DNA of 64,000 nt from a virus (IMGVR_UViG_3300041097_000006); one strand, 5' to 3'; positions 4,105 through 51,174 are shown, counted from the stretch's first letter. Translations and numbers: made by a program. Notes: a model not told the origin generated them from the letters alone.

Positions 4105-5322
4105 TTAGAACGTGCCCGTCACCAGCGCGAGCGGCCGATAGACCGTTAGAGCCAGGCGCTCTTCGCACAGGATCGCCACCATGTTTTTCACGAAAAAATC
4201 GCTGTGCGATTCGCTGATGCGGATGTTGGCATCCTCCCGGTCCCACACCTGCGCGCCCAGCTGGAACGCTCCCACCAGGAACGACCCCGTGGCCATGCTG
4301 TTCGTCGGCACCACCGGGCGGCCCCACACCATCGGGGCGCGCTGCATGGACGGGTCGCCGAACAGATAACGGCCCTGCGTGTCCTTGAGCAGCAGCAGTT
4401 CGGCCCAATCGACATGAGACAGCACCACGCCGTCCCCGACGTACTCGGAGCCGGTGGTCACCTGGAGCAGCGCCCGGAGGATCGTATCAAGCCGCTGGTC
4501 TCCCGACACCGCGCCGGAATACGCCGTGGCCTGGTTCATGAGGCCGTCCAGCGTGCCGCCGGTGCCGTCGCCGTTGAGGATTTCGTCCTCTTCCTCCAGC
4601 TTGAGACCGTAGGTCAGGCGGTTATCGATGTACCCCATCAGCATGCCGGCATCGGACAGCACCTGGCGCGATGCGGGAATCCAGTGCGCCACGGTGATAA
4701 CCGCCGCGGATTCGAGCGTGAACGTGATGCCCGATTCGGCCTTCGCCACGTTTTCACGGTTCGGGCTCGAATACTGCGGCGCCGCGGAATTTGTGAAAAC
4801 GTTTTCGCGGGCATACTCCACCACGTTGGACCCCGTGACCCCAGTGGGGATCAAGCTGCGGATGGTAAGCTGCCGCTCGGATGGCATGACCATCGCCACC
4901 CGATCCGCGGGGACCAGGGGCTGGCTGGCGCCGGTGGCGTTGACGATAGCCGTCTTGCTCGGAAACAGCGTTTTCAGAGCAACGGCGTCCATCGCCTTCG
5001 CCCGCGAACCCAGCGCGGCCGCGGCCCTCCACTCGTCGGACTCCGCCACCAGTTGACCGGGCGTCTTGACGCCGCGGGCTTCCGGCTCGACGTGGCGTTT
5101 CAGGGCGGCATCGGCCTTCTGCTCGGCGTCCAGGATGCGCGCTTGCAGCTCGGTCGACTTCTCTCCGAGCTTGACCAGCTCTTCGTTCGTCTTGGTGGTG
5201 ATCGCCGAAAGCGTCTTGACCTCGTGCAGGGCCTGATCCATCGCCTGCTGAGTCTGATCCTTCACGTCCTTGAGGCCCTGCTTCAAGACCTCCTGCACTT
5301 CCTTGATTTCATCGGGTTCCAT
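4105..5322 (-). CDS. Major capsid protein, HK97 family (with coiled-coil delta domain)
   Basis: N-terminal coiled coil; KAES.ITF...TVAHWIPASRQVLSDA, EEDEILNGDGTG, FVKNMVAILCEERLALTVYRP. Confidence 0.97.
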   Translation of the reverse strand: MEPDEIKEVQEVLKQGLKDVKDQTQQAMDQALHEVKTLSAITTKTNEELVKLGEKSTELQARILDAEQKADAALKRHVEPEARGVKTPGQLVAESDEWRAAAALGSRAKAMDAVALKTLFPSKTAIVNATGASQPLVPADRVAMVMPSERQLTIRSLIPTGVTGSNVVEYARENVFTNSAAPQYSSPNRENVAKAESGITFTLESAAVITVAHWIPASRQVLSDAGMLMGYIDNRLTYGLKLEEEDEILNGDGTGGTLDGLMNQATAYSGAVSGDQRLDTILRALLQVTTGSEYVGDGVVLSHVDWAELLLLKDTQGRYLFGDPSMQRAPMVWGRPVVPTNSMATGSFLVGAFQLGAQVWDREDANIRISESHSDFFVKNMVAILCEERLALTVYRPLALVTGTF

Positions 5323-7168: not shown

Positions 7169-8850
7169 CCAGATATCCCCTTGTCTTCCTCGCTCCGCAC
7201 CGCAGCCCGCGACATGCCCATGAATATGGCAATCGCCCCGTCAATTTTCTGATCCGCCGCTTGCTTGACGGGTGAGTGCAGCCCCTTCGTGCTCGGCTTC
7301 CCAACAACGTTCGACAGGCACCACGTGGTGACCGGGTTCCCGTCGTGGTGCACTCGCCCGTCCACCAGGGCGGCGATGAAGTCGTCAACCGGCAGGGCGA
7401 AATTCCACGGTTTCTGCTGGAACTCTACTATATCTAGGGAATCGCCGACAATCTCCCCCACATCTAGGGCTACCTGCTGCGCGTTGAAAGGGTCGAAGAT
7501 GAATTCCCGGGCCCCGTAGGTGCGCAAGTCCGCGGCCACCTGCTCGGTAATCAGGCCGAAGTCCACCACCGCGCCGAGGGTCGGGGTGAGATGCCCCTCG
7601 CGCACCCACCGTTCATAGCTGGTACGGTTTTTCCCAGGGGCCTCGATGGTCTCCTGGGGAAGCCAGTACCGGCCGAACAGGTAGTAGTGGGGCTTTCCGT
7701 CCAGATACTTACGGAATGTATAGCTGGCAGCGCACAGGTCGATCTTGGACGCCATATCCAGAGACCCGAAACACTCGCACCCCGCGAGGTCCGCCGGCAT
7801 CAACAGCGGGTCCGCTGCGCGCTGCCAGTGCGCCAGGGGGATCAGCTGCGAACCAGCGCCGCACCACGCATTCAGGTGCTTGGTCTTGAACCGCGCCTGT
7901 GTTGCCGGCGTCATGATGGCCGCCCGCTGTTGCGCAATCAAAAAATCCTCGAACACGGAAACCCCGTAGTTGGGGTTCGCCTTCCGCAGCGCGGCCGGGT
8001 CCGTCCAGTCGTCGGCGTCGTCGATGCCGTAGAGCAGCCCGAACGCCTCGGGGTCGTCGATGACACCCTCCAGGATTTTTTTCACCCCCTGTTCATGCTC
8101 GTAGCATGGGCCTGCCAGGTTGTCCCCGGCGGTGGTGATAATCAACAGCAGTGGCTGCTCTCGCGCGCCCATGCCGGTCTGCATCGTGTCCACTAGATCC
8201 GGTACAGCATGCTCATGGTATTCATCAACAATGGCCGCGTGCGGGCTGGCGCCGTCCCCAGGTTTTCCAATGACGGGCTCGAACCGCGAGAAGTCCGCCT
8301 CGATAACCATCGAAGCTTTCAGTACCTCAATCCCGGCCGCCTCCAGCAAGTCCGGCGTTTTCTCGGCCATGAGCCGCGCCGGCCGGAACACCTCCCACGC
8401 CTGCCTTTCCGTTGTGGCACCGCTGTACACCTCCGCACCGTGTTCCCCATCCGCGCAGAAGAGCGCCAGGCCGATGGCCGCGGCCAGTACTGACTTACCG
8501 TTCTTGCGGGGGATTCGCAAGTATGCCGAACGGAAACGGCGCAGGCCGTCCTTATGACGCCGCCATCCGAAAATGTTGCACACGATGAACGACTGCCACG
8601 GTGCCAGTATCAGCATCTGCCGTTGCGCGGCCCACTTGCCCTTGACGTGCGGCAGAGCCTCGATGAACCGACACACGCGCTCGGCTTCGTCGACGTCGAA
8701 ATAGTACGGGTGCCCCGGCGTGTCTGACTCGGCCAGGTCGTTCAGGAACCGTTCGCACGCGCGGACTACCCACGCGCAATTGGGGATGGCCCCGTCGATT
8801 ACACCGTGCGCATAATCGAGTGCTGCCTGGACGTGGGGGCAATCAGCCAC
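7144..8850 (-). CDS. terL: Terminase large subunit (Terminase_1, HK97-like)
   Basis: Walker A IPRKNGKS, Walker B IVDEYHEH, ITTAG, nuclease LDMASKIDL and KIDGAIA. Confidence 0.97.
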   Translation of the reverse strand: MADCPHVQAALDYAHGVIDGAIPNCAWVVRACERFLNDLAESDTPGHPYYFDVDEAERVCRFIEALPHVKGKWAAQRQMLILAPWQSFIVCNIFGWRRHKDGLRRFRSAYLRIPRKNGKSVLAAAIGLALFCADGEHGAEVYSGATTERQAWEVFRPARLMAEKTPDLLEAAGIEVLKASMVIEADFSRFEPVIGKPGDGASPHAAIVDEYHEHAVPDLVDTMQTGMGAREQPLLLIITTAGDNLAGPCYEHEQGVKKILEGVIDDPEAFGLLYGIDDADDWTDPAALRKANPNYGVSVFEDFLIAQQRAAIMTPATQARFKTKHLNAWCGAGSQLIPLAHWQRAADPLLMPADLAGCECFGSLDMASKIDLCAASYTFRKYLDGKPHYYLFGRYWLPQETIEAPGKNRTSYERWVREGHLTPTLGAVVDFGLITEQVAADLRTYGAREFIFDPFNAQQVALDVGEIVGDSLDIVEFQQKPWNFALPVDDFIAALVDGRVHHDGNPVTTWCLSNVVGKPSTKGLHSPVKQAADQKIDGAIAIFMGMSRAAVRSEEDKGISGWLNNPVL

Positions 8851-9274
8851 GTGAGAGCAGCCCTCTGAACGCGTTCGCTCTTGGTGCCACGGGCAGACCG
8901 CGCATGACCTCCCCGCGCCCGGTGGGCGTCAGGCCCAGAGCCCGTAGGATCACGAACAGCCGGTTCAGCAAAGCCGGTTCCATGAACGCCCCATCCGCGC
9001 GGAACCGCGTCAGCAGGACCGCGGCCATCTCCACCACGAAGGCATCCGAAGTTTTCAGGGCCCCGGGAGGGGCGGCCCGTACCAGTTCGGCATAGCACAG
9101 AGCCGACTCCCACCCCATGTGATCGGGCGGAATGGGCTCCAGATCGGGCAAGCCCCCGGGTGCAGGTGTGCCCCCGGGTGCAGGCGGGCCGGAGGGCGCC
9201 GGGGCGGCGCGACGCTGCGGGTTTTTTTTGTACGCCCCCCGCAGCTCTAGGACGTTGGTCGGTAGCCGGCGCAT
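8843..9274 (-). CDS. terS: Terminase small subunit (P27 family)
   Basis: RRLPTNVLELRG N-terminus, LGLTPTGR C-terminal motif, directly upstream of terL. Confidence 0.88.
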   Translation of the reverse strand: MRRLPTNVLELRGAYKKNPQRRAAPAPSGPPAPGGTPAPGGLPDLEPIPPDHMGWESALCYAELVRAAPPGALKTSDAFVVEMAAVLLTRFRADGAFMEPALLNRLFVILRALGLTPTGRGEVMRGLPVAPRANAFRGLLSRG

Positions 9275-9381
9275 CGCAGCATCCATCTAGTGGGTAGACG
9301 GATGCCTAATACTAGATGTAGGGGGGTTATGTCAAGGCGGGTCCCGGGGGAGGGGGCGTTAACCGACGGAATCCGGCGATG

Positions 9382-9435
9382 AACACGTTGCAGCGGACGG
9401 GCCTGACGGCCCTCCGCTGAATTCACACGTTAGGT
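9382..9435 (+). repeat. attC: attC site 1, truncated (L'', L', R' present; R'' missing)
   Basis: AACAC GTTGCAGC GGACGGGCCTGACGGCCCTCC GCTGAAT TCACAC GTTAGGT; the 7 bp where R'' should be read GGCGATG. Confidence 0.75.
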
Positions 9436-9600
9436 TTCTCGGGCACGCTTGAGCGCAGCCCGCAGCCATTCTTTACCGCCGAGGCGGTCGTACTTCGCCT
9501 TCTCGGCTTCCGTTACCCGCTCCCGAATCATGGCCGTCTGAGCCTCTTCTGGTGGCAGTGCGGGGCGTCCGCGTGGCTTCTTTGGGGCCGCCTTAGTCAT
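9430..9600 (-). CDS. Cassette 1: 56-aa ribbon-helix-helix-like DNA-binding protein
   Basis: MTKAAPKKPRGRPALPPEEAQTAMIRERVTEAEKAKYDRLGGKEWLRAALKRARET; paralogue at 12048-12215; TAA stop is the complement of the TTA in R'. Confidence 0.7.
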   Translation of the reverse strand: MTKAAPKKPRGRPALPPEEAQTAMIRERVTEAEKAKYDRLGGKEWLRAALKRARET

Positions 9601-9877
9601 TCGCGCTCCGCAGGTATTCGCGCAGCGTGAGCGTTTCTCCGGCGTGCAGCCGCTTGTTGCACTTCGGACAGGTGTATGTCGAGCCGTGCGAACCGTCGCT
9701 ATGCTCGCAATCAACCGGGTACGGTGCTTCTGACCAGCCGCGCGCCATGTTCCACAGGTCAGGCTCGCCATCGCTGCATGGCGTACCTGGCCGAGATTGC
9801 GCTCCGCAGCACTGGCAAACCGCCCGCACTTTCCCATTCCTCGCTCGCACATAATTGACCGCTTTGCTGGTGCTCAT
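9593..9877 (-). CDS. Cassette 1: zinc-ribbon protein (CxxC...CxxC), unknown function
   Basis: VCQCCG...TYTCPKCN; GGGAG 7 nt before ATG 9877; overlaps the start of the regulator gene. Confidence 0.7.
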   Translation of the reverse strand: MSTSKAVNYVRARNGKVRAVCQCCGAQSRPGTPCSDGEPDLWNMARGWSEAPYPVDCEHSDGSHGSTYTCPKCNKRLHAGETLTLREYLRSAND

Positions 9878-9909
9878 CGTTTGCTCCCGCTTTCGTTGAT
9901 CGTGCATTT

Positions 9910-9955
9910 AGTGTGGCACAACAATTAGCGGTGCGCAAGCATTATTTGTGGCACA
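9910..9955 (-). promoter_or_regulatory. Cassette 1 sigma70-like promoter with two TGTG-G-CACA operator-like palindromes
   Basis: Minus strand TTGCGC-17bp-CACACT; TGTGGCACA at 9912-9920 and 9947-9955; same layout in cassette 6. Confidence 0.6.
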
Positions 9956-9958
9956 AAA

Positions 9959-10016
9959 ACCTAACTCCACATTGCACCGGATCGCCTCCGGCGCCCGGTG
10001 AATTCAGTCGTTAGAG
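9959..10016 (+). repeat. attC: attC site 2 (58 bp, intact)
   Basis: ACCTAAC TCCAC ATT[G]CACC GG[A]TCGCCTCCGGCGCCC GGTGAAT TCAGTC GTTAGAG. Confidence 0.92.
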
Positions 10017-10273
10017 CGCATGCGAATCTTGTCCGCCGCATCCCCAGCCGTTCCGTGTTCGTGGTCGCAGATGTTTGCGCAAACCTCGCGCTCGGCGAGC
10101 ACAGCCAGCCCGACGCAGTTCTCCGCAATCGCTTCTACTTGCTTGCGCCCGTCGCGCTCGCCGGCTTTGTATGCCGCTTGCGCAACCTCTTCCGCGTCCG
10201 CTCTCCCGATCCCATGCCCGGCCATCATGGAGTGGTATCGCTTGCTGCGCTTCTTCCAGTCTGCAAAGCTCAT
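10004..10273 (-). CDS. Cassette 2: 89-aa hypothetical phage protein
   Basis: GGGAG SD; AAYKAGERDG...AEREVCANIC...AADKIRMRSN resembles small phage proteins; ends inside attC2. Confidence 0.7.
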   Translation of the reverse strand: MSFADWKKRSKRYHSMMAGHGIGRADAEEVAQAAYKAGERDGRKQVEAIAENCVGLAVLAEREVCANICDHEHGTAGDAADKIRMRSND

Positions 10274-10302
10274 TTGTCGTTCTCCCTCTTGTCGGCCGTG
10301 CG

Positions 10303-10360
10303 CTCTAACACTACGTTGCAGCCGACCGCCTTCGGCGGCGGCTGAACTTCGACGTTAGAG
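10303..10360 (+). repeat. attC: attC site 3 (58 bp, intact)
   Basis: CTCTAAC ACTAC GTT[G]CAGC CG[A]CCGCCTTCGGCGGCG GCTGAAC TTCGAC GTTAGAG. Confidence 0.95.
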
Positions 10361-10367
10361 CGCTCCA

Positions 10368-11060
10368 TCACTCCGCACCAAAGCTCGCGGCAAGCCGGTC
10401 GTCGAAAGCGTCGTCGCTCTTGTCGCGCAAGATGCCCTCGAAAAACACGTCGGGCTCAGACTCCAGCAGGAAATGCGTCGCGCACGTCCAGGCTTTCGCC
10501 TCATCCTTCGCTTCCGGCGTCATCCTCTCGCTGCGGTCAATGGCCGCGAGGTATTCGCACTTCCGGCACTCTTGGCCGAGTCCGCAGCGCAAATGGTTGT
10601 CGGGTAGCGGCATCGCCGGTCTGGGGTCGTGGCCGCACATCTTGTAGCTGGTCGGCATGCCGCGCTCGCGCTCGTACTGGAACAGCAGCACCATGCGTGG
10701 CACTTCGTCGCTGATCTTCATTGCCGAGTACATCACTCGCGGCCACTCGCCGCCGTTCTCGCGCAGCCGGTCGCTCTCGGCGTTGCAGGCAGCGTGCCAT
10801 GCGTGGTCGCCGCATCCGCGCTGGTCAGTTCCACGGTTCGCCCGTTCCAGCCGCATTCCGCGCATGTACTCGGCGCCTTCCTTCAGCTGCTCCAGCATGT
10901 TGCCGCGGTCTCTGGCATAGCGGCGCAGGTACACGCCGGCCATCAGGCGGTCCTTCTGCTCAGGCGTCATTTTGTCGCGGTCCATGCCGGGCCAGCGCCA
11001 TAGCTCTTCGTGGTCAATCCGGTTCGCCAGTGCTTCCAGTTCTTCGGGTGTTGCTGCCAT
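10368..11060 (-). CDS. Cassette 3: ~230-aa hypothetical protein with Cys/His-rich C-terminal half
   Basis: Long ORF filling the cassette; GGAG 9 nt before ATG 11060; CGH...HLRC...ECRKC...WTCATH. Confidence 0.8.
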   Translation of the reverse strand: MAATPEELEALANRIDHEELWRWPGMDRDKMTPEQKDRLMAGVYLRRYARDRGNMLEQLKEGAEYMRGMRLERANRGTDQRGCGDHAWHAACNAESDRLRENGGEWPRVMYSAMKISDEVPRMVLLFQYERERGMPTSYKMCGHDPRPAMPLPDNHLRCGLGQECRKCEYLAAIDRSERMTPEAKDEAKAWTCATHFLLESEPDVFFEGILRDKSDDAFDDRLAASFGAE

Positions 11061-11089
11061 CTTCAAATTCTCCAAGTTCTACCACCGCG

Positions 11090-11146
11090 CTCTAACTATC
11101 GCTTGCAGCGGACGCCGTACCGGCGCCGCTGAAGCTGGCGTTAGAA
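11090..11146 (+). repeat. attC: attC site 4 (57 bp, intact)
   Basis: CTCTAAC TATCG CTT[G]CAGC GG[A]CGCCGTACCGGCGCC GCTGAAG CTGGC GTTAGAA. Confidence 0.95.
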
Positions 11147-11398
11147 CCCTTGAAACTCGCCCATGCGCTCGAACTGGTCGCGGGTCAGGAATACCGGCGT
11201 CACGGTGTATTCGCAGTCGCTCTCCGCAACCATCGCCTCAGCCTCGGCCGGCTCCATCACGCACGCGGTGCCGTCGTGCTCGACGCGAGAAAATCGCTCC
11301 GTCTTGTAGTCTTCGCACCCCGGCGCATGGTCAGCCGGTGGGTATTTGCCGCCCTTCGTTTCTTGCCAGTCGCGGCACCAGTCCTTGCAGTTGCACAT
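11141..11398 (-). CDS. Cassette 4: 85-aa hypothetical protein (Cys-rich N-terminus)
   Basis: MCNCKDWC...HAPGC...; SD GGAGG comes from the attC5 spacer; TAA stop lies in R' of attC4. Confidence 0.7.
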   Translation of the reverse strand: MCNCKDWCRDWQETKGGKYPPADHAPGCEDYKTERFSRVEHDGTACVMEPAEAEAMVAESDCEYTVTPVFLTRDQFERMGEFQGF

Positions 11399-11401
11399 GG
11401 G

Positions 11402-11489
11402 TTCTAACCCTCCGTTGCAGCAGACGCCGTGAAGCGCCGCAGGTTTATCCAAGCGCCGTCGCGCGGCGCTGCTGAACTACACGTTATGC
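11402..11489 (+). repeat. attC: attC site 5 (88 bp, intact)
   Basis: TTCTAAC CCTCC GTT[G]CAGC AG[A]CGCCG...CGGCGCT GCTGAAC TACAC GTTATGC. Confidence 0.93.
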
Positions 11490-12004
11490 GACGCAGCCCG
11501 AATCTCCCACAGGGTTCGAGCAACCCCGCTTTCCTCGGTGGCATCGCGCTTGTCCCGGAGCTTCACGCTGCTTTCGGCCCAGTTCTTGCGCGGTGCCAAG
11601 TCCTTCGCTTTCACCCAACCGGCAGCGCGGAGGGATGCCCCGCTTTCGTCCTGCCGGGTGTAGGTAATACACCGCCTGTACCCCATGGCTTTCGCCGCCC
11701 GCCAAATCGCCCCATACAACATCGAGTTGGCATTTCTGGTTCCATCGGTGCAAGTGCGGTTAACTTCCAAGGTCAGGCCGTCGTCAAAGCACCGGGCCAC
11801 GGGTCGCCCAGCCGTAGCAACGCCAACCAGTTCGGTGCCCTGGCGCAGCCCAACCCCAAACTTCCAGCCTGTCGGCGGCTTGTTGTGTCGGCGCATCGCG
11901 GCCACGAACGCCTTGGCCTCTGCCAGTGTTATCGGCACCACATGCAAAACCGGCATAACAAGGCGGTCAAGCGGACCTGCCGAAACGGCGCTTTCGCTCA
12001 TCAT
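11477..12004 (-). CDS. Cassette 5: XF1762-family phage protein (GNAT-like fold, inferred)
   Basis: RHNKPPTGWKFGVG, LVGVATAGRPVAR.FDDGLTLEVNRTCTDGTRNANSMLYGA, ITYT..DESGASLRAAGW; start lies inside attC6. Confidence 0.8.
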   Translation of the reverse strand: MMSESAVSAGPLDRLVMPVLHVVPITLAEAKAFVAAMRRHNKPPTGWKFGVGLRQGTELVGVATAGRPVARCFDDGLTLEVNRTCTDGTRNANSMLYGAIWRAAKAMGYRRCITYTRQDESGASLRAAGWVKAKDLAPRKNWAESSVKLRDKRDATEESGVARTLWEIRAASHNV

Positions 12005-12046
12005 TTACCCTTATCTCGCGGCAGTCCGCTTACCTCTACGTTAGGT
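11953..12046 (+). repeat. attC: attC site 6 (94 bp, intact)
   Basis: GCATAAC AAGGC GGT[C]AAGC GGA[C]CTGCCG...CGGCAGTCC GCTTACC TCTAC GTTAGGT. Confidence 0.93.
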
Positions 12047-12051
12047 TTCAT
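12001..12051 (-). CDS. Possible 16-codon coupling mini-ORF through attC6 (MKPNVEVSGLPRDKGK)
   Basis: ATG overlaps the stop of the 12048-12215 gene and its TGA overlaps the ATG of the cassette 5 gene (ATGA at both ends). Confidence 0.4.
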   Translation of the reverse strand: MKPNVEVSGLPRDKGK

Positions 12052-12215
12052 TTCCGCGGCTTCCTGGCCAGCTCGCGCACAAGCCAAGCCTTCCCGCCAC
12101 GCGCTTCGTATTCAGCCTTCTGTGCCTCCGTCACCCGCTCCCGAATCATGGCCGTCTGCGCTTGGTCAGGCGGTAGCGCAGGACGGCCGGGCTGTCGTTT
12201 CTCGGCCTTGGTCAT
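12048..12215 (-). CDS. Cassette 6: 55-aa ribbon-helix-helix-like DNA-binding protein (absent from ORF track)
   Basis: Hand translation MTKAEKRQPGRPALPPDQAQTAMIRERVTEAQKAEYEARGGKAWLVRELARKPRK; 28/36 identical to the cassette 1 regulator core. Confidence 0.75.
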   Translation of the reverse strand: MTKAEKRQPGRPALPPDQAQTAMIRERVTEAQKAEYEARGGKAWLVRELARKPRK

Positions 12216-12403
12216 GCGGCAATCGCATCCACGCCAGGAGCGCGAATCACAAGATCATTGCTGCCGCAATCCGGGCAACAATAGTTGTCCACCTTGGTCA
12301 AGGTGCCATCGGCCTTCCAGCCGGTCCAAGGCTTGTTCTCCCGCTCTTCCAGCGGGAGAATTACGCGGCACTTCATGCAACGGAAATGGGTCTCGGTTTT
12401 CAT
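12212..12403 (-). CDS. Cassette 6: 63-aa zinc-ribbon protein
   Basis: FRCMKCR...YCCPDCGSNDL; GGAGG SD before ATG 12403; ATGA-coupled to the regulator. Confidence 0.7.
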   Translation of the reverse strand: MKTETHFRCMKCRVILPLEERENKPWTGWKADGTLTKVDNYCCPDCGSNDLVIRAPGVDAIAA

Positions 12404-12414
12404 CTTCGCCTCCA

Positions 12415-12558
12415 TTACTTCGGGGCGCGTTGCGTAACTTTGAGCTGACCCTTCAGGTGGCCTTCGAGAATTTCGATCTCGTAGAACATCCCGCCGTGAA
12501 TGGTCATGGTCTTGCCGGTATAGCGGGCTAGGTCGCCGTAGAAGTAGGTGGTTTTCAT
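12415..12558 (-). CDS. Cassette 6: 47-aa hypothetical protein
   Basis: MKTTYFYGDLARYTGK...; GGAG SD; first gene after the cassette promoter. Confidence 0.65.
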   Translation of the reverse strand: MKTTYFYGDLARYTGKTMTIHGGMFYEIEILEGHLKGQLKVTQRAPK

Positions 12559-12589
12559 GTTGCGCTCCGCGTTCGTTGATGGTGTAGTT

Positions 12590-12634
12590 ATTGTGGCGCA
12601 ATAATCAACCATTGTCAAGCGTTTTCGTGGCACA
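12590..12634 (-). promoter_or_regulatory. Cassette 6 sigma70 promoter with two operator-like palindromes
   Basis: Minus strand TTGACA-17bp-CACAAT; TGTGGCGCA at 12592-12600 and CGTGGCACA at 12626-12634. Confidence 0.7.
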
Positions 12635-12637
12635 GAA

Positions 12638-12707
12638 ACCTAACTCCACATTCCACCGGACGGCCCAAATCTGCGCTTTGGTCCTCCGGTGAATTCAGCC
12701 GTTGGGC
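12638..12707 (+). repeat. attC: attC site 7 (70 bp, intact)
   Basis: ACCTAAC TCCAC ATT[C]CACC GG...CC GGTGAAT TCAGCC GTTGGGC; close relative of attC2. Confidence 0.92.
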
Positions 12708-13258
12708 TTCATGAAAACGTACCAGTGCGTTCCGGCCTTCTTGCCGGAGGTGTTGCCGAACAGTGGCCGCACTGGCGTCAGATCCAAGACCTCGCGCACC
12801 TTCACTTGCGTTTCGTTCCACTTGAACACGAGCACGCCGTGAGGCCTCAGCACGCGGAAGCATTCGGCAAAGCCGGCGCGCAGGTCGTCGCGCCAGTCCT
12901 GGCCGAGCTTCCCGTACTTCGCCGCCAGCCAGGAGCGCGGGCCAGCGCGCACCAAATGCGGCGGGTCAAACGCTACGAGGTGGAAGCTCTCTTCCGGGTA
13001 TGGCAGCGCCCGGAAGTCCATCATCACGTCCGGCTCAATGCACAGCGTTCGCGTGCCATCCTCGCGGCCGTGCGAGCGGTCGGTCACGGTCACGGTCTCG
13101 CTGCGCCGGTCTCCGAACACGACGTCCGGGTTCTCGCGGTCAAACCAGAACATCCGGCTACCGCAGCAGGGGTCAAGCACGCGCGGCATGCAGCCCAACC
13201 CGTCGGTCAACACGGACTGCCCGCCAGCAGCGTTCGTTCGCGCGTTGTGGTCGCTCAA
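12695..13258 (-). CDS. Cassette 7: phage SAM-dependent (putative DNA amino-) methyltransferase
   Basis: VLDPCCGSRMFWF, DFRALPY, VAFDPPHL, ECFRVLRPHGVLVFKWNE; SD AAGGAG and TTG start inside attC8. Confidence 0.85.
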   Translation of the reverse strand: MSDHNARTNAAGGQSVLTDGLGCMPRVLDPCCGSRMFWFDRENPDVVFGDRRSETVTVTDRSHGREDGTRTLCIEPDVMMDFRALPYPEESFHLVAFDPPHLVRAGPRSWLAAKYGKLGQDWRDDLRAGFAECFRVLRPHGVLVFKWNETQVKVREVLDLTPVRPLFGNTSGKKAGTHWYVFMKPNG

Positions 13259-13318
13259 CCTTCTTCTCCTTCGGTGGCCGCGCCAGAGGCGGGCAGCCGG
13301 TTACCTTCGACGTTAGAG
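13193..13318 (+). repeat. attC: attC site 8 (126 bp, intact, three extrahelical bases)
   Basis: GCCCAAC CCGTC GGT[C]AAC[A]CGG[A]CTGCCCGCC...GGCGGGCAGCCGGTTACC TTCGAC GTTAGAG. Confidence 0.92.
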
Positions 13319-13510
13319 CGCGTCTTGATCCTGCGCGTAATAGACCTTCCTCGCCTCGGAAATAACTTGCGTAATCGCAGAGCCGAGCCGCGAGGATGGC
13401 CACTTGTTTTCGAGTTGGTCCCGCAGAGCCGTCCACTCCTTCACCGACATGGTGATCTTCACGGTTGCCTCAATCTCGTCAGGCGCTTCAATCATGAATC
13501 TGGCTTTCAT
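13313..13510 (-). CDS. Cassette 8: 65-aa hypothetical protein
   Basis: MKARFMIEAPDEIEATVKITMSVKEW...; GGAG SD; TAA stop in R' of attC8. Confidence 0.7.
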   Translation of the reverse strand: MKARFMIEAPDEIEATVKITMSVKEWTALRDQLENKWPSSRLGSAITQVISEARKVYYAQDQDAL

Positions 13511-13533
13511 TTCTTTCTCCGTAGTTACCTGCG

Positions 13534-13578
13534 CTCTAACATTTGCGTCAACGCGGACGCTTCGCAAGCTCAGCGCCG
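13534..13578 (+). repeat. attC: attC site 9, truncated (R'', L'' and inner stem present; L' and R' missing)
   Basis: CTCTAAC ATTTG CGT[C]AAC[G]CGG[A]CGCT...AGCGCCG, then unrelated sequence in place of GTTACG...GTTRRRY. Confidence 0.75.
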
Positions 13579-13589
13579 ACTGCACCGGC

Positions 13590-13670
13590 ATTGTGGAACC
13601 GAAAATTTGCCTGGGAGCGACGGTTTCCATTCCGCCACGCCACGAAATTTTCACCCCCCTTCCCCTCCGT
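13590..13670 (-). other. Putative cos / packaging-initiation region
   Basis: G-rich run then AAAATTTC...GGAAACCG...AAATTTTCGG right after the HNH stop; in HK97-like phages cos lies between HNH and terS (inference from position). Confidence 0.4.
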
Positions 13671-14115
13671 CGATATTTTCCGAACAGGATCGGCCAATCG
13701 GCATTTCCCGCGGCCCGTCGTCCGGCTGCCGGCTCGTACCGTCACGCTGGCGCCCCGGGTGCCGCTCGTAGCCCCTCTGACGCTCCGCCTCCGACTTGGC
13801 ATCACTGCATGCCCGGCAGAGCCCTTGCGTATTCTCCGGCGTGTCCGAGCCGCCTTCAGCCAGCGGCACGATGTGATCCCGAATCGTCGCCAGTTCGACC
13901 CGTCCCGCCGCCTCACACGCCGCGCACAACGGGGAGTGCCGAAACAGTTCCTCGCGCTGCCGCTGGAGCCATCGCCCGGTTCTCCGCCGGCCCGTTTCGC
14001 TCGCGGTATTTTTCCACGCCGGTTGTTCGTGATCGCCACACCGCGAGGATTTACCGTCCGTTAATTCTGTGCATCCAGGATACGTGCACGGTTTTTTCGG
14101 TAATTTTCTCGCCAC
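13651..14115 (-). CDS. HNH endonuclease (HK97 gp74-like terminase accessory)
   Basis: KPCTYPGC...RC..H, PLCAAC...ATIRDHIVPLAEGGSD...N.QGLCRAC..AKS; GTG start after AGGAGG. Confidence 0.9.
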   Translation of the reverse strand: MARKLPKKPCTYPGCTELTDGKSSRCGDHEQPAWKNTASETGRRRTGRWLQRQREELFRHSPLCAACEAAGRVELATIRDHIVPLAEGGSDTPENTQGLCRACSDAKSEAERQRGYERHPGRQRDGTSRQPDDGPREMPIGRSCSENIDGGEGG

Positions 14116-14196
14116 GGTATTTCCTCCTGAAATATAAATAGGCATCCCGCATACCGTCCGGCCCGCCGTCCGATTCGCCCATCTCCTCCATCCCCT

Positions 14197-14396
14197 TGTC
14201 CGAAACGTCCGATTCACCTCCCCTTTAGGGGGTGAATCGGACGTTTCGGACATAGGGGAATGGATGGGCGTACGATAATCGACGTGACTAATCGGACATG
14301 AATCGTACGCTGATTCGTACGCTGCGAATACGAAAAATCGGACGATAATTATCGTCATGAACGCGGTAATTATGAGCCCGGTTATCATAATTACCG
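14197..14396. promoter_or_regulatory. Cluster of perfect inverted repeats (candidate replication origin or regulatory hub)
   Basis: 22-bp IR 14197-14218/14231-14252, 16-bp palindrome GACGATAATTATCGTC 14341-14356, 12-bp IR 14364-14375/14385-14396; recurrent AATCGGAC and CGTACG. Confidence 0.6.
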
Positions 14397-14675
14397 TACC
14401 GAACCCGCCCGCACCACGGGATACCGGCCCGTCCGCCAAATCGTCCAGGGCGAATTCAACGCCCCCCGTAACCCGCCGGGGGCCAGGTCCAGCAGCGCGC
14501 AACACCACACGAACCCGAACGGCCGGCGGTCGTCGCTGTATACCCACCGCGCGGGCTCCAGTGTGGCCGCCACGTCCGGGGGCATCTGGCGCAGGTTCGC
14601 CTGGTGGTCACGGACGGCCTGGAGGATGACGGCGGCCACCAGGCCCCGGTGAAACGCTATTTGCTCGGCGTTCAT
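14391..14675 (-). CDS. Hypothetical protein (94 aa)
   Basis: LVAAVILQAVRD...ARW..SDD..PFGFVWCC..LDL.P..LR pattern typical of small phage proteins; ATGA-coupled. Confidence 0.7.
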   Translation of the reverse strand: MNAEQIAFHRGLVAAVILQAVRDHQANLRQMPPDVAATLEPARWVYSDDRRPFGFVWCCALLDLAPGGLRGALNSPWTIWRTGRYPVVRAGSVR

Positions 14676-47754: not shown

Positions 47755-47909
47755 CGCAGCATCCATCTAGTGGGTAGACGGATGCCTAATACTAGATGTA
47801 GGGGGGTTATGTCAAGGCGGGTCCCGGGGGAGGGGGCGTTAACCGACGGAATCCGGCGATGAACACGTTGCAGCGGACGGGCCTGACGGCCCTCCGCTGA
47901 ATTCACACG

Positions 47910-48080
47910 TTAGGTTTCTCGGGCACGCTTGAGCGCAGCCCGCAGCCATTCTTTACCGCCGAGGCGGTCGTACTTCGCCTTCTCGGCTTCCGTTACCCGC
48001 TCCCGAATCATGGCCGTCTGAGCCTCTTCTGGTGGCAGTGCGGGGCGTCCGCGTGGCTTCTTTGGGGCCGCCTTAGTCAT
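47910..48080 (-). CDS. Copy 2: cassette 1 RHH-like regulator
   Basis: Same as 9430-9600. Confidence 0.7.
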   Translation of the reverse strand: MTKAAPKKPRGRPALPPEEAQTAMIRERVTEAEKAKYDRLGGKEWLRAALKRARET

Positions 48081-48357
48081 TCGCGCTCCGCAGGTATTCG
48101 CGCAGCGTGAGCGTTTCTCCGGCGTGCAGCCGCTTGTTGCACTTCGGACAGGTGTATGTCGAGCCGTGCGAACCGTCGCTATGCTCGCAATCAACCGGGT
48201 ACGGTGCTTCTGACCAGCCGCGCGCCATGTTCCACAGGTCAGGCTCGCCATCGCTGCATGGCGTACCTGGCCGAGATTGCGCTCCGCAGCACTGGCAAAC
48301 CGCCCGCACTTTCCCATTCCTCGCTCGCACATAATTGACCGCTTTGCTGGTGCTCAT
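48073..48357 (-). CDS. Copy 2: cassette 1 zinc-ribbon protein
   Basis: Same as 9593-9877. Confidence 0.7.
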   Translation of the reverse strand: MSTSKAVNYVRARNGKVRAVCQCCGAQSRPGTPCSDGEPDLWNMARGWSEAPYPVDCEHSDGSHGSTYTCPKCNKRLHAGETLTLREYLRSAND

Positions 48358-48483
48358 CGTTTGCTCCCGCTTTCGTTGATCGTGCATTTAGTGTGGCACA
48401 ACAATTAGCGGTGCGCAAGCATTATTTGTGGCACAAAAACCTAACTCCACATTGCACCGGATCGCCTCCGGCGCCCGGTGAAT

Positions 48484-48753
48484 TCAGTCGTTAGAGCGCA
48501 TGCGAATCTTGTCCGCCGCATCCCCAGCCGTTCCGTGTTCGTGGTCGCAGATGTTTGCGCAAACCTCGCGCTCGGCGAGCACAGCCAGCCCGACGCAGTT
48601 CTCCGCAATCGCTTCTACTTGCTTGCGCCCGTCGCGCTCGCCGGCTTTGTATGCCGCTTGCGCAACCTCTTCCGCGTCCGCTCTCCCGATCCCATGCCCG
48701 GCCATCATGGAGTGGTATCGCTTGCTGCGCTTCTTCCAGTCTGCAAAGCTCAT
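48484..48753 (-). CDS. Copy 2: cassette 2 hypothetical protein
   Basis: Same as 10004-10273. Confidence 0.7.
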   Translation of the reverse strand: MSFADWKKRSKRYHSMMAGHGIGRADAEEVAQAAYKAGERDGRKQVEAIAENCVGLAVLAEREVCANICDHEHGTAGDAADKIRMRSND

Positions 48754-48847
48754 TTGTCGTTCTCCCTCTTGTCGGCCGTGCGCTCTAACACTACGTTGCA
48801 GCCGACCGCCTTCGGCGGCGGCTGAACTTCGACGTTAGAGCGCTCCA

Positions 48848-49540
48848 TCACTCCGCACCAAAGCTCGCGGCAAGCCGGTCGTCGAAAGCGTCGTCGCTCT
48901 TGTCGCGCAAGATGCCCTCGAAAAACACGTCGGGCTCAGACTCCAGCAGGAAATGCGTCGCGCACGTCCAGGCTTTCGCCTCATCCTTCGCTTCCGGCGT
49001 CATCCTCTCGCTGCGGTCAATGGCCGCGAGGTATTCGCACTTCCGGCACTCTTGGCCGAGTCCGCAGCGCAAATGGTTGTCGGGTAGCGGCATCGCCGGT
49101 CTGGGGTCGTGGCCGCACATCTTGTAGCTGGTCGGCATGCCGCGCTCGCGCTCGTACTGGAACAGCAGCACCATGCGTGGCACTTCGTCGCTGATCTTCA
49201 TTGCCGAGTACATCACTCGCGGCCACTCGCCGCCGTTCTCGCGCAGCCGGTCGCTCTCGGCGTTGCAGGCAGCGTGCCATGCGTGGTCGCCGCATCCGCG
49301 CTGGTCAGTTCCACGGTTCGCCCGTTCCAGCCGCATTCCGCGCATGTACTCGGCGCCTTCCTTCAGCTGCTCCAGCATGTTGCCGCGGTCTCTGGCATAG
49401 CGGCGCAGGTACACGCCGGCCATCAGGCGGTCCTTCTGCTCAGGCGTCATTTTGTCGCGGTCCATGCCGGGCCAGCGCCATAGCTCTTCGTGGTCAATCC
49501 GGTTCGCCAGTGCTTCCAGTTCTTCGGGTGTTGCTGCCAT
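48848..49540 (-). CDS. Copy 2: cassette 3 hypothetical protein
   Basis: Same as 10368-11060. Confidence 0.8.
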   Translation of the reverse strand: MAATPEELEALANRIDHEELWRWPGMDRDKMTPEQKDRLMAGVYLRRYARDRGNMLEQLKEGAEYMRGMRLERANRGTDQRGCGDHAWHAACNAESDRLRENGGEWPRVMYSAMKISDEVPRMVLLFQYERERGMPTSYKMCGHDPRPAMPLPDNHLRCGLGQECRKCEYLAAIDRSERMTPEAKDEAKAWTCATHFLLESEPDVFFEGILRDKSDDAFDDRLAASFGAE

Positions 49541-49620
49541 CTTCAAATTCTCCAAGTTCTACCACCGCGCTCTAACTATCGCTTGCAGCGGACGCCGTAC
49601 CGGCGCCGCTGAAGCTGGCG

Positions 49621-49878
49621 TTAGAACCCTTGAAACTCGCCCATGCGCTCGAACTGGTCGCGGGTCAGGAATACCGGCGTCACGGTGTATTCGCAGTCGC
49701 TCTCCGCAACCATCGCCTCAGCCTCGGCCGGCTCCATCACGCACGCGGTGCCGTCGTGCTCGACGCGAGAAAATCGCTCCGTCTTGTAGTCTTCGCACCC
49801 CGGCGCATGGTCAGCCGGTGGGTATTTGCCGCCCTTCGTTTCTTGCCAGTCGCGGCACCAGTCCTTGCAGTTGCACAT
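49621..49878 (-). CDS. Copy 2: cassette 4 hypothetical protein
   Basis: Same as 11141-11398. Confidence 0.7.
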   Translation of the reverse strand: MCNCKDWCRDWQETKGGKYPPADHAPGCEDYKTERFSRVEHDGTACVMEPAEAEAMVAESDCEYTVTPVFLTRDQFERMGEFQGF

Positions 49879-49956
49879 GGGTTCTAACCCTCCGTTGCAG
49901 CAGACGCCGTGAAGCGCCGCAGGTTTATCCAAGCGCCGTCGCGCGGCGCTGCTGAA

Positions 49957-50484
49957 CTACACGTTATGCGACGCAGCCCGAATCTCCCACAGGGTTCGAG
50001 CAACCCCGCTTTCCTCGGTGGCATCGCGCTTGTCCCGGAGCTTCACGCTGCTTTCGGCCCAGTTCTTGCGCGGTGCCAAGTCCTTCGCTTTCACCCAACC
50101 GGCAGCGCGGAGGGATGCCCCGCTTTCGTCCTGCCGGGTGTAGGTAATACACCGCCTGTACCCCATGGCTTTCGCCGCCCGCCAAATCGCCCCATACAAC
50201 ATCGAGTTGGCATTTCTGGTTCCATCGGTGCAAGTGCGGTTAACTTCCAAGGTCAGGCCGTCGTCAAAGCACCGGGCCACGGGTCGCCCAGCCGTAGCAA
50301 CGCCAACCAGTTCGGTGCCCTGGCGCAGCCCAACCCCAAACTTCCAGCCTGTCGGCGGCTTGTTGTGTCGGCGCATCGCGGCCACGAACGCCTTGGCCTC
50401 TGCCAGTGTTATCGGCACCACATGCAAAACCGGCATAACAAGGCGGTCAAGCGGACCTGCCGAAACGGCGCTTTCGCTCATCAT
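49957..50484 (-). CDS. Copy 2: cassette 5 XF1762-family protein
   Basis: Same as 11477-12004. Confidence 0.8.
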   Translation of the reverse strand: MMSESAVSAGPLDRLVMPVLHVVPITLAEAKAFVAAMRRHNKPPTGWKFGVGLRQGTELVGVATAGRPVARCFDDGLTLEVNRTCTDGTRNANSMLYGAIWRAAKAMGYRRCITYTRQDESGASLRAAGWVKAKDLAPRKNWAESSVKLRDKRDATEESGVARTLWEIRAASHNV

Positions 50485-50527
50485 TTACCCTTATCTCGCG
50501 GCAGTCCGCTTACCTCTACGTTAGGTT

Positions 50528-50695
50528 TCATTTCCGCGGCTTCCTGGCCAGCTCGCGCACAAGCCAAGCCTTCCCGCCACGCGCTTCGTATTCAGCCTTC
50601 TGTGCCTCCGTCACCCGCTCCCGAATCATGGCCGTCTGCGCTTGGTCAGGCGGTAGCGCAGGACGGCCGGGCTGTCGTTTCTCGGCCTTGGTCAT
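50528..50695 (-). CDS. Copy 2: cassette 6 RHH-like regulator
   Basis: Same as 12048-12215. Confidence 0.75.
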   Translation of the reverse strand: MTKAEKRQPGRPALPPDQAQTAMIRERVTEAQKAEYEARGGKAWLVRELARKPRK

Positions 50696-50883
50696 GCGGC
50701 AATCGCATCCACGCCAGGAGCGCGAATCACAAGATCATTGCTGCCGCAATCCGGGCAACAATAGTTGTCCACCTTGGTCAAGGTGCCATCGGCCTTCCAG
50801 CCGGTCCAAGGCTTGTTCTCCCGCTCTTCCAGCGGGAGAATTACGCGGCACTTCATGCAACGGAAATGGGTCTCGGTTTTCAT
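50692..50883 (-). CDS. Copy 2: cassette 6 zinc-ribbon protein
   Basis: Same as 12212-12403. Confidence 0.7.
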   Translation of the reverse strand: MKTETHFRCMKCRVILPLEERENKPWTGWKADGTLTKVDNYCCPDCGSNDLVIRAPGVDAIAA

Positions 50884-50894
50884 CTTCGCCTCCA

Positions 50895-51038
50895 TTACTT
50901 CGGGGCGCGTTGCGTAACTTTGAGCTGACCCTTCAGGTGGCCTTCGAGAATTTCGATCTCGTAGAACATCCCGCCGTGAATGGTCATGGTCTTGCCGGTA
51001 TAGCGGGCTAGGTCGCCGTAGAAGTAGGTGGTTTTCAT
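50895..51038 (-). CDS. Copy 2: cassette 6 47-aa protein
   Basis: Same as 12415-12558. Confidence 0.65.
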   Translation of the reverse strand: MKTTYFYGDLARYTGKTMTIHGGMFYEIEILEGHLKGQLKVTQRAPK

Positions 51039-51174
51039 GTTGCGCTCCGCGTTCGTTGATGGTGTAGTTATTGTGGCGCAATAATCAACCATTGTCAAGC
51101 GTTTTCGTGGCACAGAAACCTAACTCCACATTCCACCGGACGGCCCAAATCTGCGCTTTGGTCCTCCGGTGAAT

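Follow-up and report, generated by a model that had tools for sequence, protein, structure and literature searches.

An integrase-less array of inverted integron cassettes in a cos-type siphophage, probably drawn from a phage-associated cassette pool

Main

Classical integrons, such as those of class 1, combine an integrase gene (intI), the site attI, the promoter Pc and an array of co-oriented promoterless cassettes. In the 'inverted-integrase' integrons of Treponema and others, intI lies on the same strand as the cassettes. Arrays of attC sites without intI (CALINs) have been found in virulent and temperate phages, with DNA methyltransferases among the cargo; five of six phage attC sites tested recombined with IntI1, the phages were proposed to acquire anti-restriction cassettes, and the arrays were described as typical in structure (Qi et al. 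2023, PMC9892861). Reversed cassettes are known from sedentary chromosomal integrons, where they are mostly toxin–antitoxin cassettes with their own promoter (PMC13108822), and cassettes can also be inserted at non-att genome sites by attC × attG recombination (Loot et al., bioRxiv 10.1101/2022.09.11.507474). Clusters of attC sites in phages are thus on record; uniform inversion was absent from the literature searched. Here we describe a phage locus that is likely to be an integrase-less array (CALIN) of eight inverted cassettes in a cos-type siphophage, derived from a phage-associated cassette pool.

Results

The window, that is, the whole 64,000-nt stretch of DNA analysed, contains 1.66 copies of a 38,480-bp phage genome. 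The phage, a siphophage of the cos type, encodes replication functions of its own and no integrase of any kind. Eight attC sites and one half-site, with 11 open reading frames (ORFs) inside, are located between terS (8843–9286, − strand, 147 aa) and an HNH endonuclease gene (13651–14547, − strand), the two phage genes that a preliminary description had named as flanks. Both identifications stand, that of HNH through PHROG matches (phrog_144, 3.2e-23) and that of terS through only its position directly upstream of terL (phrog_9, 1.9e-161) and its tblastn relatives, which adjoin terL in other phages. Insertion of the array is supported by relatives in which HNH lies directly upstream of terS, as in locus L053 (HNH 9123–9452, terS 9613–9939, terL at 10001). 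The cos region, likely the physical end of the virion DNA, is at 13611–13623, 40–90 bp from the half-site S9: contigs of several runs end at 13611 or begin at 13623 with sequencing-adapter letters directly attached, and contigs from other samples likewise terminate there.

We scored attC sites with a covariance model on both strands of the window. Six full sites (S1–S5 and S7) reach 48–82 bits on the + strand and two degenerate ones (S6 and S8) 20 bits, against at most 23 bits for the same places on the − strand; the eight sites occupy 3.95 kb and every top strand is on +. A strict attC-shaped pattern gave 6 matches against 0.00 expected from shuffles; the matches come from three sites, each encountered in both copies of this part of the genome. 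The complete imperfect inverted repeat, R''(RYYYAAC)-L''...L'-R'(GTTRRRY) over about 55–140 nt, is present in six sites, and six fold as hairpins with z from −2.3 to −6.7; S6, S8 and S9 are degenerate. S1 (9374–9440; this and all following sites on +) is a full hairpin with a degenerate R'' (GATGAAC) and the R' GTTAGGT (48 bits; − strand fold z = −3.5). S2 (9954–10021; 75.3 bits on + against 13.8 on −) and S7 (12633–12712; 59.7 bits on +) have nearly identical arms. S3 (10298–10365) is the best-formed site, with 82 bits on + and 20 on −, a fold of −25.7 kcal/mol (z = −6.65) and 84–91% identity to class-1 attC sites. S4 (11085–11151) scores 68.3 bits on + and 22.8 on −, and S5 (11397–11494; 53.1 bits on +) has a long variable loop. 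Only the L'/R' half (GTTAGGTTTC) is recognisable in S6 (11948–12051; 20.1 bits on +, weak fold), and a comparable half-site is found upstream of Mom in loci L001 and L002. S8 (13188–13323, core 13250–13323; 20 bits on +) folds no better than shuffles, and the Shine-Dalgarno motif of g10 is now located in its left arm. At the distal end, the half-site S9 (13526–13570), read from the sequence, consists of R'' (GCGCTCTAAC) and an L''-like arm; its right half is absent, and it gave no covariance-model match and no stable fold.

The repeats might be a phage-specific intergenic element, such as a terminator, an RNA-processing hairpin or a phage nuclease target, that merely resembles attC. They stand between nearly every gene pair, some supply a Shine-Dalgarno motif or a stop codon, an HNH gene adjoins the array, and S2 read on the − strand is followed by a T-run. 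Against this, they have the full R''/L''/L'/R' anatomy with bulges, 84–91% identity to the attC sites of the aacA34 and gcu cassettes, and the co-occurrence with TIGR02249 integrases in canonical position described below; moreover, a terminator scan found 6 against 5.5 expected from shuffles and an Rfam search returned no match for the repeats. We consider this explanation extremely improbable and treat the repeats as attC sites.

All 11 ORFs between the sites are on the − strand, antisense to attC and co-oriented with the flanking phage genes, as originally noticed and now borne out by covariance scores and gene calls. A Shine-Dalgarno motif precedes 10 of the 11 starts, the remaining gene (g7) being start/stop-coupled to g8, and is found at none of six rival + strand ORFs. 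Pipeline calls on four contigs 99.98–100% identical give the same 11 genes on the same strand. With the Mom-like/XF1762 and methyltransferase matches, these observations establish − as the coding strand, so that none of the 11 ORFs is a classical cassette gene, that is, promoterless, co-oriented with its attC and thereby open to expression from Pc. Given the inverted fraction in bacterial arrays (14/94), the probability of eight out of eight inverted cassettes by chance is about 2e-7.

Two cargo genes have clear family matches. The product of g6 (11477–12004, −, 175 aa), previously called XF1762-like, does match that family (NF045478, 2.2e-58) and belongs in addition to the Mom-like DNA modification proteins (phrog_1384, 3.3e-37). 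The second, g10 (12695–13258, −), encodes the DNA methyltransferase with a DPPH motif that had been recognised before (phrog_954, 3.5e-72); its start is ambiguous (TTG at 13258 or ATG at 13189), and it ends in ...FMKPN, where CCCAAC makes up the S7 R' box. The 230-aa product of g4 (10368–11060, −) is Cys/His-rich and has no assigned function: none of its 226 homologues carries a Pfam domain or a functional name, and one is encoded in the early region of a prophage, next to YqaJ, Tad3 and a methylase. Three small genes, each called at the same length elsewhere, are interlaced with the sites. The hypothetical g3 (10004–10273, −, 89 aa; GGGAGA Shine-Dalgarno) runs through the R' box of S2, and codon-position GC alone does not separate it from a + strand ORF (9998–10345) that itself lacks a Shine-Dalgarno motif. 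In g5 (11141–11398, −, 85 aa) the Shine-Dalgarno motif (GGAGG) is inside the S5 spacer and the stop is the TAA of the S4 R' box; the hypothetical g11 (13313–13510, −, 65 aa; GGAGA) stops at the TAA of the S8 R' box.

Cassettes 1 and 6 are paralogous, self-contained modules of two and three genes with promoter-like sequence, so the statement that the cargo includes no toxin–antitoxin genes is not established for them. Cassette 1 holds g1 (9430–9600, −, 56 aa; GGAG Shine-Dalgarno; 56-aa call on four other contigs), whose stop is the TAA within the S1 R' box, and the Cys-rich, zinc-ribbon-like g2 (9593–9877, −, 94 aa; GGGAG Shine-Dalgarno; 94-aa call elsewhere), the two overlapping by ATGA. Cassette 6 (12048–12558) holds g7 (12048–12215, 55 aa), the zinc-ribbon-like g8 (12212–12403, 63 aa) and g9 (12415–12558, 47 aa), all on − and called at these lengths on contigs L333 and L334; on L331 and L332, which have the identical sequence, the calls for the g9/g8 stretch are 65 and 67 aa. 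Over 108 nt, g1 and g7 share 74% identity. The region upstream of cassette 1 (9878–9953, −) has repeated GTGGCACA motifs and is paralogous to 12559–12632 (right-end alignment of the two cassettes), and the cassette 6 copy contains a sigma-70-like match at 12618–12590. Searches of Pfam, PHROG and NCBIfam gave no match for g1 (earlier called RHH-like), g2 or g7; g9 had no match in the two family libraries searched, and g8 had two sub-threshold Pfam matches only.

The inversion depends on which strand of the attC sites is the top one, and a reading in which − is the real top strand would turn these into ordinary cassettes with an attC after each gene. The sites are near-palindromic, and the R'' of each is complementary to the R' of the preceding site instead of its own, a chain that is symmetric and gives no information on which strand is top. 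Furthermore, g3, g6 and g10 stop in the attC spacer two codons beyond the R' box, as many canonical cassette ORFs do, g10 has a possible TTG start inside an R box, and the first extrahelical base of the bottom strand is C instead of the usual G in five of seven sites (the + strand bulge is G, not C, at most sites), S7 having the classical arrangement of C on the top and G on the bottom strand. In the g4 cassette family, attC conservation across arrays is neutral (0.57 on the 5' side, 0.58 on the 3' side). Against this reading stand, besides the covariance scores, several tests on sites of known orientation. In intI1-anchored class-1 integrons, an HMM built from only the six window sites, + strand, matches two attC sites on the top strand, those of aacA34 (47 bits) and a gcu cassette (29.6 bits), and gives no − strand match; the covariance model finds the attC sites of catB3, aac(6')-Ib4, IMP-14 and IMP-45 on the top strand only, and the identity to class-1 sites is likewise in top-strand orientation. 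The − strand fold places single-base bulges on its 3' arm, with spacers of 6 and 5 nt, and such bulges are the canonical arrangement of an attC bottom strand (Nivina 2016, PMC5027507). In 16 of 17 bacterial loci, as for 56 of 56 attC matches on IntI-bearing viral contigs, the assigned top strand is directed away from intI, and the same model makes bacterial arrays mostly co-oriented (below). Finally, what the paralogous cassettes 1 and 6 have in common is the attC lying 5' of their genes and not the one lying 3' of them; the two copies have nearly identical arms, and the cassettes diverge past the GTT of R'. A mis-assigned polarity is thus very unlikely, and the attC top strand is + throughout the array.

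Among thirteen other viral contigs, 39 intervals are inverted, 1 is co-oriented and 9 are ambiguous; with the window included, the counts are 45, 1 and 10. Bacterial arrays with the same attC motif have 80 co-oriented and 14 inverted cassettes, in line with the earlier remark that classical arrays are mostly co-oriented (Fisher 5e-23 for viral versus bacterial, with intervals that are not independent; the coding-strand classifier depends on Shine-Dalgarno motifs and made no call for 10 viral and 71 bacterial intervals). The bacterial inverted cassettes are scattered singletons, and none of the bacterial arrays in which two or more cassettes were called is inverted throughout. The proposed distinct class of inverted, phage-type cassettes recurs, in these 13 and in nine further IntI-bearing viral contigs; in all, about two dozen further phage contigs have the backwards layout, and some of them encode an integron integrase. 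There are exceptions: the array of phage TJE1 is canonical (its attC is co-oriented with its methyltransferase, as checked here), that of L367 is mixed and that of L370 co-oriented. Inversion is lineage-specific, neither obligatory nor general among phage arrays.

The cargo is phage-type. Relatives of the methyltransferase occur on at least 287 viral stretches, of the Mom-like protein on 31 and of g4 at 8 viral loci, mostly as ordinary phage genes without attC, which agrees with the description of the cargo as phage accessory genes. Across the recurring arrays, the identifiable cargo consists mostly of DNA-modification genes and includes DNA methyltransferases, Mom-like proteins, phrog_12600, HNH and a PAPS-reductase-like protein. 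Such DNA-modification cargo plausibly counters restriction.

The array could also be an inert, one-off capture, in which a bacterial array fragment recombined illegitimately into the phage, its genes being inverted by happenstance or overwritten by phage genes and its repeats now serving only as intergenic hairpins. The phage has no integrase, S1, S6, S8 and S9 are defective, and with both outer sites defective the array may be frozen. In five contigs, four of them 100% identical and the fifth with a single mismatch, it has neither gained nor lost a cassette, no deletion (excision) joints are seen at the array in contigs of four runs, and the position beside cos could be a recombination hotspot. 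But the array has six well-formed inner sites, many unrelated viral contigs have the inverted layout with homologous cassettes (methyltransferase, Mom and g4) in varied order and company, and some of these contigs have an intact intI. A one-off capture had been expected to show the closest homologues in bacterial integrons and none in phages; instead, the relatives are in phages, and the 11 cassette proteins have none in 120 bacterial integron loci, which also gives no support to a silent host-integron reservoir. We judge one-off capture unlikely and favour exchange within a phage-associated cassette pool.

At least ten viral contigs carry a true integron integrase, with the cassette ORFs directed toward it and co-directional with the flanking phage genes. 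The TIGR02249 integrases of G006 and G008 score 427 and 413 bits (cut-off 265), on contigs rated 92% and 100% complete. Along G008, a tail gene is followed by a phage integrase, intI, an array of 12 attC sites in which methyltransferase and RNA-ligase cassettes are inverted, and then SbcC-like, RecT and exonuclease genes. Inverted arrays are present on nine more viral contigs with IntI, and genes past the far array end are co-directional. No IntI, attI, intI remnant or tyrosine recombinase was found in the genome of the window phage; lacking a TIGR02249 intI, it is not a complete integron, which would have attI and Pc adjacent to intI, and with two or more attC sites of the same polarity within a few kb and no intI near, it is a CALIN. 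The platform suggested by the evidence is the phage-borne integron that encodes intI itself, instead of a host-integron reservoir.

Discussion

Each unit, read on +, has the classical anatomy (TTRRRY, cargo, R''-L''-loop-L'-G) with its ORFs on the attC bottom strand. The fuller form of such an array is the phage-borne integron, in which intI, cassette ORFs and neighbouring phage genes all run in one direction, the attC sites keeping the usual polarity with their top strands directed away from intI. If attC polarity is fixed relative to attI and intI, and such integrons lie within phage operons that run in a single direction, intI included, the phage would transcribe only cassettes with bottom-strand ORFs, and we infer that only such cassettes would be kept and exchanged. 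Cassette movement in the window phage would require an IntI acting in trans, from the host, a prophage or a co-infecting phage. Read-through phage transcription would drive expression, together with internal promoters in cassettes 1 and 6. Ribosome-binding sites are present inside the cassettes, some inside attC.

There is perhaps an even chance that phages keep an integron lineage of their own, an IntI clade with a pool of flipped cassettes, as a platform for exchanging counter-defence genes. If so, methyltransferases, Mom-like modifiers and RNA ligase would be exchanged as plug-in units, with intI, cassettes and phage operons co-directional. Ordinary phage genes trapped between attC sites could become new cassettes. 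With the recombinogenic bottom strand as the non-template strand, folding, and with it cassette exchange, might be coupled to transcription or replication of the phage.

Compared with the phage CALINs of Qi et al., the eight cassettes here are all inverted and the relatives include intI-bearing phage integrons, whose intI is co-directional with the cassette ORFs, unlike in that description. The array resembles classical integrons in attC anatomy and sequence (up to 91% identity to class-1 attC sites), in G|TT junction logic and, in the phage-borne relatives, in attC polarity relative to intI. It differs in that Pc would yield antisense RNA from ORFs on the attC bottom strand, in that the window has no intI or attI, and in carrying phage DNA-modification genes instead of resistance genes. 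With the reversed cassettes of chromosomal integrons it shares ORFs antisense to attC and, in cassettes 1 and 6, two or three genes that look self-promoted; those, however, are singletons in co-oriented arrays, whereas here the whole array is reversed and no promoter of their own is seen in most cassettes. Recombination of attC × attG, known outside phage DNA, is a possible IntI route for seeding a phage genome at GTT-type sites and accounts for integrase-less clusters that are not integron remnants, although the window ends in a full attC with a poor R'' and a half attC instead of a simple GTT. The inverted-integrase integrons, a layout we also see in bacterial loci L140, L223, L218, L236 and L138, are like the phage type in making intI and cassette ORFs co-directional. 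There, intI is flipped, the array lies downstream and the ORFs are still co-oriented with attC; in the phage type, intI is in its canonical position and the ORFs are flipped relative to attC, which places the cassettes upstream of intI.

Results

The window repeats itself with a period of exactly 38,480 bases and therefore represents one phage genome written circularly about 1.66 times; all features recur at +38,480, with a second copy of the attC array at 47854-52050. PHROG matches describe a siphovirus-type genome, with structural genes for terL, portal, major head protein, tape measure and tail proteins, and replication genes for a family-A DNA polymerase, primase-helicase, helicase, exonuclease and gp2.5-like SSB. 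The same PHROG search found no integrase of any kind in the phage genome, tblastn with IntI1 and one phage IntI gave nothing significant in the window, megablast of 12 kb of the window against GenBank phages gave no match, and an Rfam scan of the window returned no family. A homologue is present in a Sterolibacterium MAG.

The array is flanked on the left by terS (8843-9286) and on the right by an HNH endonuclease gene (13651-14547). In relatives identified through terL these two genes are adjacent (for example in viral locus L053, with HNH at 9123-9452, terS at 9613-9939 and terL from 10001), so the 4-kb stretch separating them in the window is an insertion. Among 80 terL-related loci at 55% identity or less there were no attC matches, which leaves no syntenic arrays for comparison. 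In several runs and samples, contig sequence ends at 13611 or begins at 13623, and sequencing-adapter letters adjoin it directly. The virion DNA probably has its physical cos end here; the array would then come first after the end in the linear genome, followed by terS, with HNH at the opposite end. PHROG matches to the 298-aa HNH ORF span residues 148-275 only, and its GTG start at 14547 may lie too far upstream. Non-coding DNA upstream of HNH holds a 30-nt inverted repeat (14192-14257; 90% complementary, 6-nt gap), which may be an operator, origin or terminator; its attC-model score is weak, about 10-11 bits on both strands, and it is not an attC.

By reading, the units at 9200-13800 take the form YCTAAC, 5 nt, RTTSCASCNGAC, loop, STGAAY, 6 nt and GTTRRR. 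A strict attC pattern has six matches in the window versus 0.00 expected from shuffles and, given the repeated genome, these are three sites, each seen twice. With a covariance model trained on six window sites and two class-1 attCs, sites S1-S5 and S7 score 48-82 bits on the + strand, the degenerate sites S6 and S8 score 20 bits on the + strand, and attC places on the - strand reach at most 23 bits; S9, near 13530, consists of the left half only. The R'' of each site pairs better with the R' of the preceding site than with its own (S4 and S5, for example). This chain is the signature of units joined at R boxes but, being symmetric, is polarity-neutral alone. A 1351-nt low-depth contig from the same sediment sample (run X2, record 4) carries the 33-nt attC core of S3 with one mismatch; compared with window 10315-10347, its R boxes and flanks differ, so the core occurs in a second genetic context in the same community.

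Several lines of evidence together identify the + strand as the attC top strand. By blastn, S3 matches the attCs of the plasmid-borne aacA34 and gcu ('Pathogenicity locus') cassettes at 84-91% identity; both belong to class-1 integrons with intI1 upstream and are matched in top-strand orientation. An HMM built from the six window sites alone scores 47 and 29.6 bits on the top strands of these two attCs and has no matches on their opposite strands, and the covariance model finds the attCs of catB3, aac(6')-Ib4, IMP-14 and IMP-45 on the top strand only. When the - strand is folded as DNA, its hairpins carry the single-base bulges on the 3' arm and have unequal spacers (6/5 nt); at the first bulge, five of seven sites have C where attCs usually have G. 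Bulges on the 3' arm and spacer asymmetry mark the recombinogenic bottom strand (Nivina et al. 2016, PMC5027507). At least 120 bacterial loci, spread over many phyla, contain the motif TCTAAC-N5-GTTGCAGCNGAC; 17 of them also have an intI-like gene, and in 16 of these the HMM-assigned top strand is directed away from it, as expected. In the same model orientation, bacterial arrays contain 80 co-oriented, 14 inverted and 71 ambiguous cassettes, and 80 versus 14 is the expected canonical bias.

The preliminary description had placed all 11 cassette ORFs antisense to the attC orientation, and family matches, Shine-Dalgarno motifs and independent gene calls agree. Three of the ORFs have relatives: g6 is an XF1762-family, Mom-like gene (NF045478, 2e-58; phrog_1384, 3e-37), g10 encodes a DNA methyltransferase (phrog_954, 3.5e-72) and g4 has 226 homologues. 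Shine-Dalgarno motifs precede 10 of the 11 - strand ORFs, the remaining one, g7, overlapping g8 by ATGA; no Shine-Dalgarno motif precedes any of six long ORFs on the + strand. For four contigs from other samples that are 99.98-100% identical, other pipelines call the same genes on the same strand. Across the eight cassettes all 11 ORFs are thus antisense to attC, with a probability of all being inverted of about 2e-7 at the bacterial background of 14/94. The TAA of the R' box is the stop codon of g1, g5 and g11, the frames of g3, g6 and g10 run past the R' box to a stop in the spacer, and the Shine-Dalgarno motif of g5 lies inside S5.

Cassettes 1 (9430-10010) and 6 (12041-12701) are paralogues. 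They are alike in the region upstream of the genes and in the arms of the 5'-side attCs, S2 and S7, as far as the GTT of R', and diverge directly after it. The arms of S2 and S7 are nearly identical, and full-length identity is only 72% because the loops differ. Their 3'-side attCs, S1 and S6, have little in common beyond a generic L'/R' half, S6 having no R''/L'' arm. The common 5'-side arms are supportive of a + top strand without being decisive. For g4 cassettes, a visual impression that the 5'-side attC is conserved did not survive comparison of four arrays (5'-side 0.57, 3'-side 0.58). Both paralogous cassettes contain a small protein (g1 or g7, labelled RHH-like in the preliminary description), a zinc-ribbon-like protein and repeated GTGGCACA motifs (9878-9953 and 12559-12632), and cassette 6 has a sigma-70-like site at 12618-12590. 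From this layout the two cassettes look self-regulated, and a putative toxin-antitoxin-like role is conceivable.

Inverted arrays recur in other viral contigs. Relatives of the Mom-like gene led to three contigs with attC matches (L001, L002 and L010), all antisense to the gene; an attC-pattern search of viral contigs gave seven; and relatives of the methyltransferase and g4 gave seven contigs with arrays, in which 31 of 31 attC matches are antisense to the gene. As three separate searches all yield inverted arrays, the arrangement is not a one-off. A ten-site array lies in L117, a complete, terminally repeated genome of 59 kb that has no integrase and whose terL is unrelated. Coding strands were assigned from coverage by ORFs with a Shine-Dalgarno motif, replacing longest-ORF and GC3-based classifiers, which were unreliable in GC-rich DNA; the strand of many array ORFs outside the window was confirmed by PHROG matches. 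This classifier counts 45 inverted, 1 co-oriented and 10 ambiguous intervals in the window and 13 other viral contigs, or 39, 1 and 9 without the window, and the difference from bacterial arrays (80 co-oriented, 14 inverted) has a Fisher value of 5e-23 for intervals that are not independent. Inverted cassettes in bacteria are scattered singletons. The proposal of a class of inverted phage cassettes is supported by this recurrence. Across arrays, DNA homology of Mom cassettes ends at the coding region, so that their borders could not be mapped. Four DNA runs of one study, which may represent the source samples, yielded contigs with no cassette-loss joints; rare variants are lost from contigs, and the absence says nothing on activity. 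Among the sequencing runs listed as containing the phage sequence, none is an RNA run.

Annotated array ORFs encode DNA methyltransferases (several PHROGs), Mom-like proteins, the recurrent phrog_12600, an HNH endonuclease, a PAPS-reductase-like protein and an RNA ligase. The suggestion that the cargo is phage-type also holds, since most members of the three families with relatives are ordinary phage genes that lack an attC: viral relatives number at least 287 for the methyltransferase, with about 4 of the best 80 in arrays, and 31 for the Mom-like protein, with three or four in arrays, and g4 is present at eight viral loci, three of them in arrays. Outside arrays, g4 copies are found in early regions of prophages next to YqaJ, Tad3 and methylases, and no attC was found near the g4 homologues in L322, L326, L335, L374 and L376. 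The L335 homologue (9455-9982; 84% identical), in a prophage early region, has a YqaJ exonuclease as a neighbour and a Tad3-family (anti-Thoeris) gene two genes away, a setting that hints at an accessory or counter-defence role for g4. A search for the window cassettes in bacterial integrons, proposed earlier, found no relatives of their proteins in 120 loci. The methyltransferase family ends in FMK, often FMKP; array copies (window 12695-12712; L242, L244, L282 and L310 near 4470-4490) read FMKPN, with AAC as the next codon. This codon completes CCCAAC, the R' box, which puts the cassette border exactly at the conserved coding end.

Some phages carry the integrase as well. An ORF in viral locus L323 scores 427 bits on the integron-integrase model TIGR02249 (cut-off 265 bits), and intI of G008 (IMGVR_UViG_3300049489_000585, the contig of L242; 54.9 kb, rated 100% complete) scores 413 bits. 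G008 is a temperate phage with a full integron (L341 5126-10829, L342 26-3587) in the order tail gene, phage integrase, intI, 12 attC sites, then SbcC-like, RecT and exonuclease genes. Its attC top strands are directed away from intI and its cassette ORFs are on the intI strand, four ORFs having DNA-methyltransferase PHROG matches, one more a weak match, and another encoding an RNA ligase. A scan with the L323 IntI gave 30 viral loci (L344-L373), one being the query's own contig and the other 29 being 54-73% identical. All 56 covariance-model matches in these loci are on the strand opposite intI and nearly all are upstream of it, as in canonical integrons. Nine further contigs have cassette ORFs that read in the direction of intI, and genes past the far array end are mostly co-directional too. 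The array in L367 is mixed and that in L370 co-oriented; L367 comes from an isolate genome and could represent a chromosomal integron of a bacterium, adjacent to a prophage. The two phage IntIs tested are sisters with 98/96 support in a 13-row tree, a sample too small for us to claim a phage IntI clade.

Discussion

Integrons are regarded as bacterial devices whose attC polarity ensures that cassettes are expressed from Pc, and they were recently shown to store genes for anti-phage defence. For the inverted phage arrays, a cassette-selection logic can be inferred. The polarity of attC would be fixed relative to attI and intI; with a phage integron placed inside a one-directional operon and intI co-directional, transcription would reach only bottom-strand-coding cassettes, so that a pool of inverted cassettes would be kept and exchanged among phage arrays. 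New cassettes with the same inverted polarity could arise from ordinary phage genes that come to lie between attCs. Their origin would become testable, because these gene families include plain phage genes as well as cassettes. The window array would be an integrase-less, end-damaged copy adjoining a physical DNA end, and its further movement would need IntI in trans.

If this is true, phages would have a counterpart to the bacterial integron that turns the same recombination machinery to the opposite side of the arms race, with a reversed coding-strand rule and a cargo dominated by DNA-modification genes that plausibly serve anti-restriction. The many unannotated small cassettes would form a candidate list of counter-defence genes, and gene-versus-attC polarity would be a simple marker separating phage-pool from bacterial cassettes. 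The literature searched contained no report of uniformly inverted phage cassettes or of phage integrons whose cassettes read in the direction of intI. Clusters of attCs that carry methyltransferase genes have already been published for phages, as in phage TJE1 (Qi et al. 2023, PMC9892861). The TJE1 cluster differs from the inverted arrays in being canonical, with the attC at 1011-1081 co-oriented with the methyltransferase gene orf2.
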